This document shows positions 1 to 32,284 of a stretch of 32,284 nt of DNA, in pieces. Made by a program: the position numbers and the translations under genes. Below the pieces are notes generated by a model. The model saw nothing but the letters and a program-made list of their open reading frames with translations. It was not told where the DNA came from and ran no database searches. How positions within the stretch are numbered: position 1 is the first letter of the stretch; each line of letters begins with the position of its first letter. Source of the DNA: a virus (Duplodnaviria > Caudoviricetes); IMG/VR virus record IMGVR_UViG_3300025652_000290, positions 1 through 32,284 of that record. The stretch is one strand, 5' to 3'.

Positions 1-2435
1 ATACGATAAGTAGGCTGTTTCTTATTTTCCTTTGCCTGTTTGACCTTTTCTCCTACCTTTTTGAAATCAGTAGCTTCTTCCAGTTTCTTTATTAAGGAGT
101 CACTTACTTTTCCTTCTTTAATTGCTTTTCGGAGTCTAAAGGCATCCTTGAGAATGAGTTTAGCATTGTCAATAAATCGGTTGAAGATCTTTGTAAGTTT
201 TGCTCCGATCGATTGATGAACCTTGCCTTGTGTCGCAAAATGTACTGCTTTGGTTGAGAACCATTCGGGGTTGGATTCTCCTGTGTCTTGCTCTCCTGTA
301 GCTTCGTAATAGTTTTTTCTATCTTCTGTGATTTCTGCTTCAAATTTTTCTTCTCCTATATTTTTTATTTCAGCTTTATAATACTCTTCAGCCATTTCTT
401 CCTGGACAGCAACATACTCATCTGCCATTCTTTGTGGAGTTCCTGCTCTGGATATTTTAATAGATCCACCAAACGATGTACCAGTAATAATTATTTTATT
501 AGGATCGGTATTTTCGTCAATTCCATGATCTCGTAACACCTGTTTTGTCTTTTCTTCTGTCCATCCTTTTTCTTCTACTTCATCAGCTAATATTCGGTCC
601 AGGTATTCTTCTTCAATAGCTATATTAGGTGCTTCTTCTTTTACTTTTTTTATTAATGCACCAGTAAAATCTTTACCTTCCATTTGTTGCTGTTTAATAT
701 TTGCCCTGGCTCCAGCTTCTCTAAACTCTGTTTCTGTTTCTGGAAACTTATCCATCTCCAGATTCCTACGAATCATTTCTTTACCCAGATCAGATTGCCC
801 TTCTATTTCACCTGTTTCCTGGCTAATTCCAAGTTCCATTGCTTCTTCTTTCGTAAGAGATCTTGCAAAGTTGGTAATATCATCATCGGTTAATTGTCGC
901 AGTTGACCAGATTTAATTGCCTCTAATCCTTTGGCTTTTGATTTGTCTAATTTCTTTTTAGACCTTTTGTCTAATGCTTTTCCTGTACCCCTAACCCCTG
1001 CTGAAAAACCACCAATAGCAAAGGCTTCAGCTAACCATTCTTCTGCTGTAGGCATTTTAAATTCGTGTCCTTCTACTCCAGATTGTAAAAAATCTGTAAA
1101 TCTTTCTTCCATTAACTCTACTGGAACTGATTGTATACCTGCCTGTCTAACTGCTTGCATAAATTTACCAGGAGGTACATTTGGGTTTTTACGAATTAAT
1201 CCTTTTAGTAAACCATGAACAGCACTTTCTGGATTACTTTTTAAAAAAGTTTTAAACTCTTTACCTAAAAAGGGAATAGACTCCCCAGATTGTTCACCTA
1301 ACAATTCTAAATAAGTCAATAAATATCCATCTACAATAGACTTGCCTAAACTTTTCTCATTACTGGAGAATACTTCCAGCTTGCCATCTAATGCTCGATT
1401 TAATTCATAGTCTGGTAATAATTCATTACTGGCATTTGACACTACCCTACTAAACATTTTTGGATTTATGGTTCTTGCAAGTGTCCCTGTAGTTGCACCT
1501 ACTACACCCTTAACAACTTTTAAACCAAATTTATCTGCACCTTCTTTAAGGATCTTTTTACCTTGCTTTGATAGTACCCAATTCACTGATTCTTTCAGTG
1601 CTTTTTGACCTGCTTTCCTACCAACAGTATATGTACCAGCAGTCGTTGCAAATTCAAAAGCGTAAGCAGGAAGTTGTATCATTATATCCATAACCATTGC
1701 CCCAAAGTCACTATCTCGTTCCATTTCTAATTGGGCATTCATAACAATTGCATAATCTTGTTGGTCAGCAGTATTTCTTTGTATGTCTTTAATAGATTGC
1801 AGAAGGTCTAATGCTTCATAGGCTTCAACTCCACCACCTAAATATGGCAGTTTACTACCAAACTTTTTATAATCTGTGAATGTTTCTTTTAAGGTTCCTA
1901 AAAATGTACGCTTTGGTTCAAGTATCCCTTCGTCACTTAATCGCTTTTTTGTTTGCGATATAGCTTTTGTTTCAAGATCTTGTTCACTATAAACAGGCTT
2001 TCGATCAAAGGGACCTCGAATAACACTTTGATCCTCTGAAGTTTTAGGCTGACCAATATCCTGGGCTATTTTGTTGTATTCTTCTTGTAAATACGGTTGA
2101 AATAGTTGTTCGTATTGTTGGTATTTTTGTATTGTCTCCTCAAAACTTTTTTCTTTGTTTTCTTGCTTTTCAATAGAAGGAGGTTTATTTAATGGTTTCC
2201 CAGTATAATACGATGTATTTGTATATGCACTTTGTCGTACAGCTTCTTGGACTTCTGGTGCTTCGTTTTCTGTCTGCTTTTCAATTTTTTGTATCTCACC
2301 TAATCTCTGTGCTGGATCTGGTGCATTAATAATGTTATCCTGGCGTTGTCGTTCTACTTCCAGGTCATTATATGCCTGGTCCAGAATATCATCTAAATAA
2401 TTACGCTGTGGCTGTGTGTTAAAGGGATCTGCCAT
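1..2435 (-). CDS. Large internal virion / DNA-ejection (polyvalent-type) protein, N-terminal part; runs off the left end of the window
   Basis: Not in the ORF track because there is no stop in the window. ATG at 2435 overlaps the upstream TAA (TAATG). My manual translation (MADPFNTQPQRNYLDD...KENKKQPTYR) stays open for ~811 codons to position 3. It follows the nozzle and two smaller ejection-type genes. Confidence 0.75.
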   Translation of the reverse strand, partial: MADPFNTQPQRNYLDDILDQAYNDLEVERQRQDNIINAPDPAQRLGEIQKIEKQTENEAPEVQEAVRQSAYTNTSYYTGKPLNKPPSIEKQENKEKSFEETIQKYQQYEQLFQPYLQEEYNKIAQDIGQPKTSEDQSVIRGPFDRKPVYSEQDLETKAISQTKKRLSDEGILEPKRTFLGTLKETFTDYKKFGSKLPYLGGGVEAYEALDLLQSIKDIQRNTADQQDYAIVMNAQLEMERDSDFGAMVMDIMIQLPAYAFEFATTAGTYTVGRKAGQKALKESVNWVLSKQGKKILKEGADKFGLKVVKGVVGATTGTLARTINPKMFSRVVSNASNELLPDYELNRALDGKLEVFSSNEKSLGKSIVDGYLLTYLELLGEQSGESIPFLGKEFKTFLKSNPESAVHGLLKGLIRKNPNVPPGKFMQAVRQAGIQSVPVELMEERFTDFLQSGVEGHEFKMPTAEEWLAEAFAIGGFSAGVRGTGKALDKRSKKKLDKSKAKGLEAIKSGQLRQLTDDDITNFARSLTKEEAMELGISQETGEIEGQSDLGKEMIRRNLEMDKFPETETEFREAGARANIKQQQMEGKDFTGALIKKVKEEAPNIAIEEEYLDRILADEVEEKGWTEEKTKQVLRDHGIDENTDPNKIIITGTSFGGSIKISRAGTPQRMADEYVAVQEEMAEEYYKAEIKNIGEEKFEAEITEDRKNYYEATGEQDTGESNPEWFSTKAVHFATQGKVHQSIGAKLTKIFNRFIDNAKLILKDAFRLRKAIKEGKVSDSLIKKLEEATDFKKVGEKVKQAKENKKQPTYR

Positions 2436-2977
2436 TATCTATTTTTTACATCTGCTAATAATGGAATAATTCCCTTACCATGTTTTTTTATTAAATCTTG
2501 AATTGCCTTTTTTATAGCTAACTCTTGAGCATTTTTTGGACTTTCTTTTGCAAACCCAGGAGTATCATTTAAATGTTTTTGTACATTAGTATTAAAATTG
2601 CTTTTTATCATATCTTGATTTCTGTCAATTTTTCTTACATCTGGTGTTTTTCGACCATATTGTTGTGCTAATTCTGCCAATTTTAAACTATCTCCATATG
2701 CTTGTTCTTGTTTTCTAAATAATTCAGCACCTGGTCTTGGTAAGTATTGTATTGATTTTACATTATCACCATCTTCATTTACTTCTGTAACAACTGTTTC
2801 TTTGCGACCAAGATCTCTAAATTCTTTTTGTTTTTTACCAAATCGAAGTATATCATCTTGTGGGGATGCTTTTCTCATTTCTTCAGCATAAGATCTTTTT
2901 GCTTTTAAAGAATCTGTTTTCTTTTTTGTTTTTCGATTGCTTACATTATTAAGTAATTGCTTTTGCCAATCTTCCAT
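2435..2977 (-). CDS. Putative internal virion / ejection protein (180 aa, charged, helical)
   Basis: Translationally coupled on both sides; lies in the podovirus ejection-protein block. Confidence 0.5.
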   Translation of the reverse strand: MEDWQKQLLNNVSNRKTKKKTDSLKAKRSYAEEMRKASPQDDILRFGKKQKEFRDLGRKETVVTEVNEDGDNVKSIQYLPRPGAELFRKQEQAYGDSLKLAELAQQYGRKTPDVRKIDRNQDMIKSNFNTNVQKHLNDTPGFAKESPKNAQELAIKKAIQDLIKKHGKGIIPLLADVKNR

Positions 2978-21898: not shown

Positions 21899-22111
21899 TT
21901 ATAGTGTATGTACTTGGTATCGTTTGCTCTCGATATATTGATCCAAGTCCTTTTGTTTAACTCTGTACTGCCTGGCACTTAATCGATGACCAGGTAACTC
22001 TCCTGTTTTAATTAACATCAAGACTAATCTGTTGTCTTTTAATGCTAAAATCTTTCGTACTTCCTCTACTGTAAGTAGCTGTAATATGTTTTTATTGCTA
22101 TTCAAATGCAT
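21899..22111 (-). CDS. Excisionase / Cox-like HTH_17 DNA-binding protein
   Basis: LLTVEEV...L........LIK.GELP..R.....YRV...DL..YI pattern; divergent from the repressor-integrase pair. Confidence 0.8.
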   Translation of the reverse strand: MHLNSNKNILQLLTVEEVRKILALKDNRLVLMLIKTGELPGHRLSARQYRVKQKDLDQYIESKRYQVHTL

Positions 22112-22226
22112 CTAATGTATCTTATTGTGTTATAATTAATTAAATAATTAACAGAATATAACTTATTATATTTTGTTATAAAAGTAATAATTTATAATAT
22201 TTTATAACTATCTGTAGGAGGATAAA
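22112..22226. promoter_or_regulatory. Lysis/lysogeny switch region with candidate operators and promoters
   Basis: Very AT-rich gap between divergent genes. Inverted repeats TAACAGAATATAA/TTATATTTTGTTA (22149-22178) and GTTATAAAA/TTTTATAAC (22175-22208); extended -10 TGTTATAAT at 22128-22136 (+); TATAAT on the minus strand at 22165-22170. Confidence 0.6.
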
Positions 22227-23018
22227 ATGGGCTCGGTTGATGATTTTATAAACAGTATTAAACTTAAAGAAGGGCTTCGATTTGATCGTGAAGTTGCTGA
22301 ATTAGTTGGTGTAGATAAACATACACTGGCAAATGCTAAATTAAGGAACAAACTTCCTCAATCTTATGTTATATGGTATTGTAAAAAATACAATATCTCG
22401 ATTGAAGCATTTAATAAAGAGATTTCTATAACAAAAGATAACACAGGAGAAGAAAAGATGCATGATTTTGCAATGAGTTTAGCAAAAGATAAGATCCAGG
22501 CATTGGAAATGGAAATAAATGAACTAAAAAAAAGAAGTCACCTCGTACAAAATCCGACTAAAATCATAACCACAAGTTTATGGGACACCATTGACTATGA
22601 TGTACAGACGTTCCAAACATATGACTCAAGAGACTTTGGATACTTTAAAAGTTATAAAATAATACGATGGCAAGAGTTTTTTGCTAAACTTGGTTATCAT
22701 GGCGAGGAAGCAGAGATTATGCATCAAGAACATCTTGATTCTATGGATATTAAAAATAAAAATACAGATAAAGCTGACGGTTACGAAAACTTCTTATTAC
22801 ACCATGAAGCTACAGATTCTCGCCTTTATGATAGAGAGACAAGTAATAAATTTTTTGAATATGAACGAAAAGCCCAAACTGTAAGTAAAATGAATAGATT
22901 TAATCTTAATTACAAGCATAAAAATGGTAGCTATGTACCAGCGATTTTACATTGTCTTTTCGATTTTGACAAATTAACAGGAATAAGTAAAATAAAATTT
23001 ATTGATATGGTTGAATAG
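22227..23018 (+). CDS. Immunity repressor: CI-type HTH, coiled coil and PAS-like C-terminal domain
   Basis: N-terminus IK...GL..D.EVAELVGV...TL.N...RN.LP.......C..YNIS resembles the Phage_CI_repr HTH; SD AGGAGG; C-terminal FFAKLGY..EEA and YKHKNGSYVP resemble PAS/PAC motifs. Confidence 0.7.
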   Translation: MGSVDDFINSIKLKEGLRFDREVAELVGVDKHTLANAKLRNKLPQSYVIWYCKKYNISIEAFNKEISITKDNTGEEKMHDFAMSLAKDKIQALEMEINELKKRSHLVQNPTKIITTSLWDTIDYDVQTFQTYDSRDFGYFKSYKIIRWQEFFAKLGYHGEEAEIMHQEHLDSMDIKNKNTDKADGYENFLLHHEATDSRLYDRETSNKFFEYERKAQTVSKMNRFNLNYKHKNGSYVPAILHCLFDFDKLTGISKIKFIDMVE

Positions 23019-23979
23019 TTTGAGCAGGATTTACAAAAGAAATGGATCTCCATATTGGTGGTATACCTATGGAACAGCCCCTCATAGAATCCAAAGATCT
23101 ACTGGTGCTACTGATAAAAAAGTAGCTGTTCGTATCCAGGCTAAATGGGATGAAGAATTGGCGTTAAGAAAAGCTGGTGTTTCCATACCGACTGTTGACC
23201 TGCAAATACCATTTCGGCACTACATAGATGTTATCCAACAAAATAAAAAGCATTCCAGGTATAAAGATATAAAATCAGCATTAAATATGTTTATGACATT
23301 ATGTCCCAGCATAACCAATAAACACCTTACTCCATTTTATTTGCAAGAATATTATGCAAAACGTAAAGCAATGGGCAGATCTCCAAAAACAATTTTAGAA
23401 GATCATAAGGTAATAAATAACTGGTGTGAATGGATGATTGTTATGGGTTACCTATCAAAGAACCCAGAAACAGGCCTAATTCGCCCTAAAAGAGTTAAGG
23501 TTAGACCTCGTAAGGCTTACACCAGGGATGAAATAAAACACGCTTTAAATGAAGCCTGGTTAGATCATGATAAGCGATTATGGAATACTCTTTACAAAAC
23601 AGGATTAAGGGCTGTTGATGGATGTACTTTAACAAATGACAATATTAATGGAAAATTTATAGAAGTGAGTCAAGGTAAAACCGAAACCTATGATAAAGAT
23701 AGTATTGTAGTCGTACCTATGCATAAAGATCTGCAAACAATGGATATATATAATATTATGAATCCTGGATCGATTGGAAACTCCAGAGAAAGACTTAAAA
23801 AGATTTTAGGACATGGCGATTTACATACCCTTCGCCATTCGTTTGCATCGCACTTGGAAGAATTTGGTGCTACCAGATGGGAAACCAAATGTTTATTAGG
23901 ACATAAAGCCGATAGCGTGACAGCACAATATGTTCATATAAATGTAGATAAACTTTCTCCCTTAATAAATCAATTATAA
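23002..23979 (+). CDS. int: Tyrosine integrase
   Basis: Arm-binding N-terminus IYKRNGSPYWW...RST; catalytic R (TGLR), K (GKT), HxxR (LHTLRHSFAS), LGH and Y (TAQY); adjacent to attP. Confidence 0.93.
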   Translation: MIWLNSLSRIYKRNGSPYWWYTYGTAPHRIQRSTGATDKKVAVRIQAKWDEELALRKAGVSIPTVDLQIPFRHYIDVIQQNKKHSRYKDIKSALNMFMTLCPSITNKHLTPFYLQEYYAKRKAMGRSPKTILEDHKVINNWCEWMIVMGYLSKNPETGLIRPKRVKVRPRKAYTRDEIKHALNEAWLDHDKRLWNTLYKTGLRAVDGCTLTNDNINGKFIEVSQGKTETYDKDSIVVVPMHKDLQTMDIYNIMNPGSIGNSRERLKKILGHGDLHTLRHSFASHLEEFGATRWETKCLLGHKADSVTAQYVHINVDKLSPLINQL

Positions 23980-24053: not shown

Positions 24054-24133
24054 TAGTCATTGTCACATTATTGTCACATTTTTAATCCTGCCTACTGCAT
24101 CTTATTCACACTAAACTACACTTCTTAAAAAGC

Positions 24134-24160
24134 AAAAAACCCCTCAATAAAGAAGGGTTT
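24134..24160 (-). terminator. Intrinsic terminator downstream of the tRNA fragment
   Basis: Minus strand AAACCCTTC-TTTATT-GAGGGGTTT followed by further T residues. Confidence 0.7.
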
Positions 24161-24167
24161 GTCGTCA

Positions 24168-24213
24168 GTACGCCCGGGAGGATTCGAACCCCCAACCTTC
24201 TGGTCCGTAGCCA
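24168..24213 (-). mobile_element. attP core: 3' half of tRNA-Arg(ACG)
   Basis: Minus strand TGG-CTACGGA-CCAGA-AGGTT-GGGGG-TTCGAAT-CCTCC-CGGGCGT-A-C gives anticodon loop, T-arm and acceptor 3' strand; no D-arm or 5' half. Confidence 0.9.
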
Positions 24214-24270
24214 CAAGTTATACTATATATATAAGAACTTACAGGGATGTGTCACATTATTTATGTGACA

Positions 24271-26812: not shown

Positions 26813-29800
26813 TTAATTGCTATGTGCTGATTTTCCATTGTTGTAATTCTTTAAGACTTCTGTTGCTGATAGTGCTTTACCTTTATAAATCCTCACCTCA
26901 TCTATGCTTCCATTAAAAAACAAGGAATCTCCATTTGGTGCATCTGCACCTATAAATAACGTAGAAACTGAATTAAGTGAACCATTTTTTGCAGATATAT
27001 CATCAGTATCATCTAAAGCACCATCCAGATAAAATTTAGCATTTGCACTCCTATCTGCTGATACAATTACATGATGCCAATTACCATCATTAACAGCTGT
27101 ATTTCCACTAAAGCCAGAATTGCCAGAACCATCATTAAGTTCAAGATTTATTTTTTCAGAAGTATTTACACTTAAAGTAAATCCACTTGAGGCATCTCTT
27201 TTATCCATTATCCTTAAATAACCTTGCGATGTTGTTTTAAGCCAACATTCCAAAGTAAAATCAGATGTTCCAAGGTCTAAAGACTCTGAATCCTGTACTG
27301 ATATATACTCTGCACCTTTGAATCTGATACCACTTGATATTGAGTCTGTGTCTGTTAGGTAGTAGCCTTGTGAATCTCTGCCTTCATTAAGTCCTTCTGG
27401 AACTATGATTGATGCTGGATCACCATCTACTGTACCATTGTTAGAGTTTGTACTTCTATCTGTCCAAGTAGTAACACCATCATTTCTCCAGTATCCTACT
27501 AAATCGCTTGAACTTGCATAGTTACCACTATCAGTTGTTGTTAGTAAAGGTAGTCCAGAGTTGTATAAGGCTGTGATTTCATTGGCTGTTAAAGCTGAAC
27601 TCCAAATAGCTACATCGTTCATCATACCAGTAAAAGCACTATTAAACACACTATCGCCATCATTTCTATTAATACCTATATATAACCTTCTTGCTACTTG
27701 AGATATTGTTCCACTACCAGAATCAGTTGAATCTAAACTTCCATCAATATATATTTTAAAAGTAGAATTATCATAGGATAACGCTATGTGATGCCATGCT
27801 CCATTATGTACTGCATTGGTTGAAGTATGGTCATAAACTGTTGCACCAGAACTATTACCTTGATAGCTTCTTATTTTACCATCACTTGTAAGAGATGTAA
27901 AAAATTGATTATTAAGCATAACACCAGATGAATTATGCTTTAATTCTAATATAGTAGAAGATGCAGTTGAAGTTTTAATCCAGTAAGAAAAAGTGTAGGT
28001 ATTCCCAACCCAAGTAGCATCAGTATTATTTAATACATAATCATTACTACCATCAAACACCATAGGATTATTACTTCTTACTAATGGATGTTGAAAGCCA
28101 TACTCTTGTCCAGTTGCCCAAGTGATTCCACTTCCTGTACCATGATTCTGATTACCAGAGCCATCTAATATTGCAACTCCAGAACCTTCTTGCATTGGCA
28201 TATCTAACTTTAATGCTGATGAAGCTATGCCAGTAGGTAAGGTTAATTCTGGCTTTGTGTATAACTCTCTTACTTGATCTTGAGTTAAAGCTTCGGAGAA
28301 GACTTGCACATGAGACATAGAGCCTGTAAATGGTTGAGTTGCAAAACCACCCCCAGTTCCACCTAATTTTAATTGTTTGTCTACTCCTATAGTTACATCA
28401 TCCCAAGTTAAGCTATTTGATCCAATACTTTGACCATCTAAAAATATTTGTGAACTATCCCCATCTGATACAACTGCAATATGATGCCACTTACCTAATG
28501 TTATAGTGGAGTCTGTAAGCCACGATCTCAATGATCCATCATAATAAAAATATTGTATTTTTTTATTTACATCTAATTGAATAGCCCAATAAAGATTAGC
28601 ATATCCAATTAAAGTATCCTTATTGTAAACATTACTACCATGACTTGAAATGCTTGTTGCTTTAAACCACATTGAAATAGTTTTAGGTTTTTGCCATTCA
28701 ACACTATTAACTATATTAACATAATCATTCGTACCATCAAAGCTAACTGCATTCCCACCATAGACTTCTCCATAGTTTAATGGATCAGCTACACCACTTG
28801 GTGAGTTTGTGTATCCTGTGTTTGTGGTAGCACCATAGATAGAACCTTCGTTATCTCCTTGTGCATCTGGTGCTTGTATTTCTTTTACAACTACATTATC
28901 TATTGATCCAGTAAATGATGTTGTTGCTTCAAAGAAAAAGTTAGCACCACTACCACTTCCAAATAGTTCAACTTCAATAGAAGAATTAGCATTATAATAT
29001 CCACTTACTCCTTCACCTGTAGCAGAACTACCAGTTCGTACTCTTACACTTCCAGCAGAGTAATTAGATAAATCAAAAGTGATTTTATATTTTCTACCAA
29101 CTTCTATTCCTATGTCTTGAAATAAAAATGATGCACCACTTTGTGATCCATCACAACTTGCAAGACCATTAGCAATACTCCATCCTGTGTTTTTTGTCCA
29201 ATTACTATCAGTAGCAAAATCACCATTTGTTACTAAATCATTACCTAACTCTGTACTCCCAAGATCATACCAGCTTACAAGGTTTGTCTTTAATGCACTT
29301 GTTAATGTGCTATACGAAGAGAACATAATATCTTGTATTTCACTTTGGGTTTTTACATCCGAATAAATAGCTACATTTGCTATAGAGCCTTCAAAATATT
29401 CACCACCCGGTTGTCTACCTATCTCCCCTGTTGTTCCAGTAAAGCTATTAATTGTATTTGTGCCACTACCATCAAGAGAGCCATTTAAATAAATTTTAGC
29501 ACTACCATCTGAAACATCTACAGTAACAGAGGCATGATACCATACACCAGCAGATAATACTGTTGAACCAGCAATATTACTTCCATAGGTACTGCTATAT
29601 ACTTTGTATCCACCAGAACCACCATTCCATATTAATAAACTTCTTCTTTCACCAGTAGCTTGATCACCCCAATTAACTACTATTGAAGTTTGAGCAACAT
29701 CTAACTTAAACCATGCTGAAATAGTGTAGTTACCAGATTCTTGGAAAGGAAAAGATATATAATCATCACTTCCATCAAAAGAGGTACTCCCACTTGCTAA

Positions 29801-30580
29801 TGCTACTGCACCTTTTGGTGTGGCTTTATCTTGGATTCTTGGTAAGAAAGGAGAACTGGCAGAATAGGCATCTGTTAAGAAGGTTGCACCATTATTTGTA
29901 CCATTATTTGTTCCTGTACTATCATTAGCATCTGCACTTAAATTATACCAGCTAACCAGATTGGTTAATTCAGTACCTTTTAAATCTGCATATTGTCCTT
30001 TCCAGTAGATAGATTCTATTTCAGATAAAGACAAAGCACGATTCCAGATGCCGACATTTGCTATAGAGCCATTAAAATATGCAACATCACTATAGCTTTG
30101 TTTTCCAAACAGTAAATTTTGAGAAACAGAAACAGTTTGAGATGTAGAGGCAGAGGCTACTAAAGAACCATTTAAATATAGCTTTTGAGTAGTACCATCA
30201 TAAGTACAAGCTATATGATGCCAAGTATTTAAACTTGGATTTGATACAGTTATATCACTTGAATTTAATTGATAGGTAAGGTTACTATCATATAAAAACC
30301 GAATACCATCATCATTTGCATCTCTATTATCAAAAACTACTCCACCTGTGGCTGATGCATTTACCCAGGCAGATATAGTATGATTTGTATTACTGAATGC
30401 TGTTCCTGTATTTATATAATCATCACTTCCATCAAAAGAGGTAGCACCAGATAGTAGTAGTTCTGGCTGTGATTCGTTAAAGGTTTCAGTGAATCGGTAA
30501 TATAACTTTAAACCATCTCTGATAAATGATTTTGATACCCTTCTTATAGCCGATATGGCTGTAGAAACACCTATAAACAT
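26813..30580 (-). CDS. Fibre/adhesin with five LamG (concanavalin-A-like) domains and one CBM-like domain, 1255 aa
   Basis: Five repeats of [ST]FDG..DY...T.S.W...WHH......Y.[ND]G.L...F.G.I..V.I[WY]..AL; LVTNGDFATDSNW marks a carbohydrate-binding-like module. Confidence 0.85.
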   Translation of the reverse strand: MFIGVSTAISAIRRVSKSFIRDGLKLYYRFTETFNESQPELLLSGATSFDGSDDYINTGTAFSNTNHTISAWVNASATGGVVFDNRDANDDGIRFLYDSNLTYQLNSSDITVSNPSLNTWHHIACTYDGTTQKLYLNGSLVASASTSQTVSVSQNLLFGKQSYSDVAYFNGSIANVGIWNRALSLSEIESIYWKGQYADLKGTELTNLVSWYNLSADANDSTGTNNGTNNGATFLTDAYSASSPFLPRIQDKATPKGAVALASGSTSFDGSDDYISFPFQESGNYTISAWFKLDVAQTSIVVNWGDQATGERRSLLIWNGGSGGYKVYSSTYGSNIAGSTVLSAGVWYHASVTVDVSDGSAKIYLNGSLDGSGTNTINSFTGTTGEIGRQPGGEYFEGSIANVAIYSDVKTQSEIQDIMFSSYSTLTSALKTNLVSWYDLGSTELGNDLVTNGDFATDSNWTKNTGWSIANGLASCDGSQSGASFLFQDIGIEVGRKYKITFDLSNYSAGSVRVRTGSSATGEGVSGYYNANSSIEVELFGSGSGANFFFEATTSFTGSIDNVVVKEIQAPDAQGDNEGSIYGATTNTGYTNSPSGVADPLNYGEVYGGNAVSFDGTNDYVNIVNSVEWQKPKTISMWFKATSISSHGSNVYNKDTLIGYANLYWAIQLDVNKKIQYFYYDGSLRSWLTDSTITLGKWHHIAVVSDGDSSQIFLDGQSIGSNSLTWDDVTIGVDKQLKLGGTGGGFATQPFTGSMSHVQVFSEALTQDQVRELYTKPELTLPTGIASSALKLDMPMQEGSGVAILDGSGNQNHGTGSGITWATGQEYGFQHPLVRSNNPMVFDGSNDYVLNNTDATWVGNTYTFSYWIKTSTASSTILELKHNSSGVMLNNQFFTSLTSDGKIRSYQGNSSGATVYDHTSTNAVHNGAWHHIALSYDNSTFKIYIDGSLDSTDSGSGTISQVARRLYIGINRNDGDSVFNSAFTGMMNDVAIWSSALTANEITALYNSGLPLLTTTDSGNYASSSDLVGYWRNDGVTTWTDRSTNSNNGTVDGDPASIIVPEGLNEGRDSQGYYLTDTDSISSGIRFKGAEYISVQDSESLDLGTSDFTLECWLKTTSQGYLRIMDKRDASSGFTLSVNTSEKINLELNDGSGNSGFSGNTAVNDGNWHHVIVSADRSANAKFYLDGALDDTDDISAKNGSLNSVSTLFIGADAPNGDSLFFNGSIDEVRIYKGKALSATEVLKNYNNGKSAHSN

Positions 30581-30971: not shown

Positions 30972-32284
30972 TTAATCAAGGTATACTGGATTACCTATTT
31001 TAGGTTTCTTCTTTTTCTTTTTCTTTTTCTTTTTCTCCATAGGAAAACCTAAACCTTTAAGGGTTTTATCTTTTAATGATAGGTCTGTTTCTTCCGTTAA
31101 TACCTCAATTGTGTTTTCTATTGCTCGTTTTGGTCCACTGTAAGGAACTCCAAATACTTTAGAGAAACCAGATACAAATGTATCTATAATAAAAAACAAT
31201 TTTTTTGCATTAAACTCTTTACCATTAAATGTTTTTTGCACACTTTTCCCAAAATCTGTAAATGGATCAAGAATAGAAACAGGTCCCATTGGATAGGCTA
31301 AATTATAGATAGATTTAATAACATGTTCAACGCCTTTACCAAAAAACAATAACCCAGAAAATGGAAATAGTAGTATTGATACAGCTTGATCTTTATCATC
31401 CCATTTAAAACCATTAGATATAAACTGAAATAAGGTTGGTAATAAAAATTGACCTACAAAAATTCTTCTTAAATTTTCTGATTTGTCTCCACGACCAGCA
31501 AAAAAATTTCTATACCCACCAATAACCATTCGATAGTATTGATTAGGTGATGTCATAAACATAGTAAATAATTTTGCCAGTGAACCTCTTCTTTGAAAAT
31601 CTGCTAAATCTTCTACATTACTTGCTTGTTGTGATCGCAGACTTGCTTCTTCAAATTTTTTCATAGCTATTTGCTTTGCATTCTCTATTGACTTGCCATC
31701 TTTTACAGCTTTTTTATAATGGTATTTATATACAGCCCACCCACCTAAAAAAATCGCCTGTTTATCTCCCATTTTTGTAAAAGCATAAGCAAAGGTGTTA
31801 ACAAAATCGGTTCCACTAATTAATTTACCTGGTTTTTGGTTTTGTAATGCTGTTACCATATCACGCTCAAACCCCTGGTCGTATCTCATTTCTACCATTT
31901 TGCTTTTTGATAGCGTTCTGTACATTCTTTTAAATTCAAGTGGATTAAATACTTTAGCAAATTCTGTTGCCCAATCTAATGCTGGAATATCTGCAATATA
32001 CGCTGGTATAGAGGCTAACTGTTTGGCGTAAACAACTGGATTTATACCAATGACAGATCTGCTAAAATTGGCTCTTAACTTATCCATCCATTCTAAATTT
32101 TGAGCCCTATCTACTCCTCCTCTGGCAATGTCATCCATAAACTTATTTAGCACTTGACTTATACCAGATCCATGAAAATCTGCAATAGACTTTGATATAT
32201 TTCGATTCATAAATACAGATCTCATTTCTCTCATTACATCTGTATAATGTATAAAGTGTTCCATTTCTGTAATATGTTTCATTA
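30972..32284 (-). CDS. C-terminal part of a large ejection / polyvalent protein, 5'-truncated by the window
   Basis: Frame is open to the right end; A...F......SQQ...LF.MF.T.P..Y pattern seen in giant virion-protein C-termini; hydrophobic segments and a poly-Lys tail. Confidence 0.7.
   Translation of the reverse strand, partial: MKHITEMEHFIHYTDVMREMRSVFMNRNISKSIADFHGSGISQVLNKFMDDIARGGVDRAQNLEWMDKLRANFSRSVIGINPVVYAKQLASIPAYIADIPALDWATEFAKVFNPLEFKRMYRTLSKSKMVEMRYDQGFERDMVTALQNQKPGKLISGTDFVNTFAYAFTKMGDKQAIFLGGWAVYKYHYKKAVKDGKSIENAKQIAMKKFEEASLRSQQASNVEDLADFQRRGSLAKLFTMFMTSPNQYYRMVIGGYRNFFAGRGDKSENLRRIFVGQFLLPTLFQFISNGFKWDDKDQAVSILLFPFSGLLFFGKGVEHVIKSIYNLAYPMGPVSILDPFTDFGKSVQKTFNGKEFNAKKLFFIIDTFVSGFSKVFGVPYSGPKRAIENTIEVLTEETDLSLKDKTLKGLGFPMEKKKKKKKKKKPKIGNPVYLD

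Follow-up and report, generated by a model that had tools for sequence, protein, structure and literature searches.

A likely immunity repressor with a predicted PAS-fold domain in a phage of probable Marinimicrobia hosts

The complete virus record IMGVR_UViG_3300025652_000290 (Caudoviricetes), whose 32,284 nucleotides are referred to here as the window, carries at 22227..23018, plus strand, a gene for a protein of 263 amino acids (aa) that is likely the immunity repressor of the phage. It joins a helix-turn-helix (HTH), a long helix and a predicted PAS-fold domain, as judged from the open reading frame (ORF), Pfam, AlphaFold models and a structure search. The architecture appears to be real and uncommon, it looks like a one-component sensor, and its modular reassortment among relatives is clear. 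That the gene encodes an immunity repressor acting as its own one-component sensor, through a PAS-fold domain responsive to a small molecule, is in our judgment an evenly balanced proposition.

Architecture of the likely repressor and predicted fold of its C-terminal domain

The ORF and the motifs quoted in an earlier, sequence-only reading were present as claimed. That reading described a CI-type HTH, a coiled coil and a PAS sensor domain in place of an autocleavage peptidase. The CI/Cro-type HTH (aa 1-64; 22227..22418, plus strand) was borne out by eight HTH rows over aa 1-74 in the structure search and by a weak match to Phage_CI_repr over aa 6-60 (E 0.0013), which scored 19.5 bits where the family cut-off is 22 and was the sole Pfam match up to E 0.1. 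The model also has a long helix after it, at aa 74-105 (22446..22541, plus strand), predicted to be a dimerizing coiled coil, with a low to middling model confidence (pLDDT 41-71 across 10-residue blocks). No self-cleavage domain was found, as had been proposed: neither Peptidase_S24 nor PAS families were matched in the Pfam scan to E 0.1, direct reading of the 263 residues found no Ala-Gly or Cys-Gly cleavage dipeptide, and the modelled domain occupies aa 118-260 (22578..23006, plus strand). The PHROGs scan of the protein gave zero matches.

The proposed check of the C-terminal domain by AlphaFold and structure search led to a predicted PAS fold. Both AlphaFold models run from two strands through a helical stretch to three strands, that is, a modelled five-stranded sheet with a helical connector in PAS order. 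Among 48,161 chains searched, PAS or LOV entries (assigned in part from entry titles) made up 41 of the 42 rows over this domain, spanning most of each target domain and with PAS-typical motifs at the expected places. The two PAS-like motifs picked by the sequence-only reading are among the most conserved columns across 169 family domains, the first with L155 (89%), G156 (92%), Y157 (82%) and E161 (74%), the second with Y229 (89%), K232 (89%) and G234 (72%). It is thus the two models and the single structure search that speak for PAS in place of S24, with weak backing from sequence. Aligned by hhalign with 30 PAS_9 domains, the domain profile gave probabilities of 7-50%, whereas none of 70 column shuffles exceeded 0.6%; Atlas features of the repressor indicate PAS-clan families (0.84-0.85), which we take as a lead only, and the best PDB sequence match (E 0.23) is to an unrelated protein. 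The flavin-binding cysteine motif of LOV domains was not found in the repressor sequence, and the single Cys of the domain (243) falls outside the columns conserved in the family. In BFVD, two phage proteins of 195-205 aa labelled “PAS domain” (A0A6J5QVN9 and A0A6J5NY05) aligned weakly over 209-233 columns and may be other HTH-PAS phage proteins.

Genetic switch and modular exchange

The role as immunity repressor is supported by the position of the gene and by the joint exchange of its control region and HTH. The gene lies at a divergent switch, separated by an AT-rich control region of 115 bases (22112..22226) from an excisionase/Cro-like HTH_17 gene of 70 aa, the first of the leftward early genes (21899..22111, minus strand; Pfam E 4.4e-10; phrog_66), and its end is overlapped by a tyrosine integrase gene (23002..23979, plus strand; PF00589, E 6.5e-11; phrog_1, E 1.9e-33). 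No other regulator points rightward beside the integrase, and Pfam and PHROGs scans of the window ORFs found no second repressor candidate. Four GTTATA half-sites in the control region form two inverted pairs of 34 bp (22129-22162 and 22175-22208; 22129..22208 overall) and are candidate operators. Their signal is modest, as four copies were reached in 12 of 500 shuffles at k=6, the best of the three word lengths tried (k=5 and k=7 gave 70 and 29 of 500).

A near-identical phage, L007, shares 91-94% identity with the window over three long stretches. In the alignment, the control region and the HTH have been exchanged as a unit (22130..22433), whereas the 270 columns that precede 22130 hold only 3 differences and the roughly 270 beyond 22433 only 2. 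Near-identity then continues to about 22702, where a second divergent block covers the later two-thirds of the PAS-fold domain (22703..22980, plus strand). In immunity variants, operator region and HTH change together, and the occurrence of this pattern here between near-identical flanks supports the repressor role, although this covariation comes from one pair only.

The same modularity is found across the family. A profile search of 1.84 billion sequences with the C-terminal domain retrieved, at E <= 0.001, the representatives of 154 clusters built at 50% identity, 150 of which were listed. The domain was near-complete in 169 of the 183 family proteins collected, starting at residue 80-139 in 141 of them and ending no more than 9 residues from the C-terminus in 159. 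Families matched by the 144 aligned members included HTH_3 (55), HTH_19 (35), HTH_26 (31) and Phage_CI_repr (23), and neither PAS nor S24 appeared among the 25 of 64 Pfam families listed for them. Within a set of 33 proteins, HTH identity and domain identity were uncorrelated (rho 0.001 over 528 pairs, which are not independent), the window-type HTH occurred with members of four domain clusters, and five HTH clusters shared the window-type domain. P0007 resembles the window protein in its HTH (83%) and much less in its domain (33%), P0003 shows the reverse (13% and 88%), P0010 and P0017 have 95% identity in the HTH and 22% in the domain, and L013 and L014 have the HTH in common and different domains. 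The HTH and the C-terminal domain reassort independently among these relatives. In two records (L001:3942-4750; L013:7956-8754), the reading frame of the regulator is interrupted, through either a real break or an assembly error.

Genomic context, attachment site and host

We surveyed 33 loci, leaving out L002, L004 and L006 (domain identical to that of the window), L008 (partial), and L009 and L013 (repeats of L005 and L079). Homologues beside integrases, which the sequence-only reading had suggested collecting, proved common: an integrase lies directly 3' of the regulator gene in 20 of the 30 loci with downstream DNA, some of them near-duplicates (16 recognized by our own profile, 3 by PHROGs, and 1 whose downstream protein start is identical to one of those), while 3 of the 33 end too early to judge. 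The adjacent integrase is missing in the other 10, and L079, L094 and L014 have in its place a convergent gene for a 550-aa ParB-like protein, so they are possibly plasmid-like prophages.

Behind the integrase lies the phage attachment site (attP), with a core (24167..24213, minus strand) that is the 3' part of tRNA-Arg(ACG) by exact matches to host genomes. It is flanked by four TGTCACAT repeats (at 24061, 24072, 24250 and 24263; 24061..24270), likely integrase arm sites, with no further copies found elsewhere in the window. A 43-nt stretch of attP matched exactly in 21 species genomes, 11 of them with Marinimicrobia or Neomarinimicrobiota in the title and 10 without a phylum in the title. 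All 10 loci checked among these 21 had the match inside tRNA-Arg(ACG), with an identity of 44-47 nt and, in one locus, of 65. The latter, in L034 around 1501-1560, corresponds to window 24149-24213, extends 18 bases past the usual end, and may be a prophage junction. L007:9417-9710 encodes a nearly identical integrase, yet a pattern search found no tRNA-like core behind it. We infer that the attP is intact and that the record is the free form of a temperate phage of Marinimicrobia, likely infecting uncultured members of this phylum in the ocean. The label “prophage” given earlier has therefore to be dropped, since the phage record is complete and its attP intact. It also has genes for a P22-like portal, terminase, major head, recombination, replication and endolysin.

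The record looks circular. On the minus strand, long frames of 859 and 454 aa (window 1-2438 and 30972-32284) span its joined ends, where one large gene is possibly out of frame, and the match of a 436-aa ORF to a PHROG of 2231 positions is confined to the end of the latter. At 26813-30580, a 1255-aa protein with five Laminin_G_3 stretches is mosaic relative to L007 and is likely the receptor-binding fibre.

The domain also occurs in 6 of 401 genomes of the host phylum, searched with a profile that included the first two, which had been found independently. Two of the six homologues are response regulators (PF00072 and PF00196) and four are stand-alone HTH (XRE) genes among cellular, non-phage genes. 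The gene beside the response regulators is presumably kinase-like, and what we take from its motifs to be an asparagine synthetase B-like gene directly follows three of the stand-alone genes and lies about 4 kb from the fourth (L044:8647-11153, L045, L048 and L046), a faint hint of an amino-acid cue. No homologue was found with the first profile in the five genomes matching at the bacterial attachment site (attB), which are incomplete. A LexA-like gene is present in four of the five candidate host genomes. The motif TTAC-N2-GTAA occurs in three of four upstream regions of these lexA-like genes (L104, L106 and L107) and is repeated in two, making it a candidate SOS box.

Possible modes of induction and relation to known systems

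Since the repressor lacks a self-cleavage domain, its release must come from elsewhere. In the mechanism that we propose, the protein would dimerize through its long helix, a predicted coiled coil, and its HTH would bind the divergent control region and shut down the leftward early genes, with repressor and integrase probably co-transcribed rightward on one transcript. A small host-cell molecule would bind the PAS-fold domain and turn DNA binding on or off, and such ligand switching would replace RecA-triggered self-cleavage. The HTH and operator block would set the immunity type and the PAS block the inducing cue, while phage and host regulators may share the domain through exchange. The small-molecule reading is favored by the portability and diversification of the domain and by its reuse in host regulators. 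Two points weigh against it: column conservation over the 169 family domains revealed no conserved cofactor motif, and the LexA-like genes of most candidate hosts leave room for an unrecognized antirepressor.

Both points would suit an immunity repressor whose PAS-fold domain binds no small molecule and serves instead for oligomerization and antirepressor docking, with induction through an unrecognized small phage protein, possibly under SOS control. Several small early ORFs without family could supply such a protein, and diversification of the domain could reflect partner specificity. However, no antirepressor family appeared among the PHROGs scans of 24 + 19 window ORFs, as the sequence-only reading had noted (many small ORFs had no match), the two copies of the putative LexA box in the window both lie within a 1576-aa ORF, and it is hard to see what a phage antirepressor would do on the response regulators and XRE regulators of the host that reuse the domain. 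We consider this explanation unlikely, if a serious one. Sensing by contact with a host protein is improbable. The phage would then read the host state because its domain pairs, for example, with the copy on host regulators or is marked for proteolysis; host homologues do exist and the domain nearly always ends close to the C-terminus, but few of the host genomes searched were found to carry it, and none of the attB-matching ones by the first profile. A role other than repression, as an activator in the manner of phage VqmA or as an accessory regulator of the integrase or early genes, is quite improbable too. The loci without adjacent integrase, some with the ParB-like gene, and the modest operator signal would fit, but the window offers no other repressor candidate and control region and HTH change together in L007. 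Another alpha/beta fold with a similar sheet is very hard to credit, given the nearly uniform PAS rows and the position of both motifs.

The likeness to lambda CI and LexA-type repressors lies in the N-terminal HTH and in the divergent switch beside a Cro-like gene and integrase; these have Peptidase_S24, whereas here there is neither S24 match nor cleavage dipeptide and a PAS fold is predicted. Coliphage 186 CI and TP901-1-type repressors are non-cleavable, with C-terminal domains that oligomerize and antirepressors that release them. The window protein resembles 186 CI in its HTH class (by the weak Phage_CI_repr match), in a repressor and integrase of the same direction and in the absence of self-cleavage, and would differ in the PAS fold predicted from the top structure rows, with no antirepressor family found among the window ORF scans. 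VqmA of vibriophage VP882 reportedly has an N-terminal PAS domain, a C-terminal LuxR HTH and a link to Qtip. It is likewise encoded by a phage, contains PAS, binds DNA and bears on the choice between lysis and lysogeny (PMC8284805). VqmA is a separate activator with PAS first, whereas the window protein starts with a CI/XRE HTH and occupies the place of the repressor. The MmyB/MltR family likewise has an XRE-type HTH followed by a PAS-like domain, a conserved head and a divergent tail; according to PMC3406030, MltR is a cellular regulator whose structure was solved with a fatty acid bound, and PAS domains also drive dimerization. That family is cellular and mainly actinomycete, a coiled-coil linker is predicted here, and the MltR ligand-binding domain had no sequence match in the repressor (Pfam; PDB sequence search). 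The Marinimicrobia chromosomal regulators (P0034-P0037, L036-L037, L040-L043) share the same domain behind an HTH, but are uncharacterized response regulators or stand-alone XRE genes in non-phage surroundings.

No description of a PAS-bearing phage repressor was found in the titles and abstract openings listed by searches of the full-text literature, mostly without subscription papers. A PAS survey (PMC10468136) names phages only in a reference, and 12 of 18 relevant passages of a review (PMC13760530) contain no such repressor. It is possible, though we would not yet lean toward it, that a large Marinimicrobia phage family uses a ligand-gated PAS repressor without a RecA step, in which operator-HTH and PAS cassettes recombine independently and the sensor is shared with host regulators. 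How marine prophages are induced without DNA damage is an open question, to which a self-sensing repressor would be, if true, a one-protein answer. The many natural head-tail combinations, and the window and L007 as a ready pair for operator specificity, need no host culture. The findings also provide an abundant uncultured phylum with a family of phages, with an attB, and with a domain unmatched in Pfam that is common to its own regulators.
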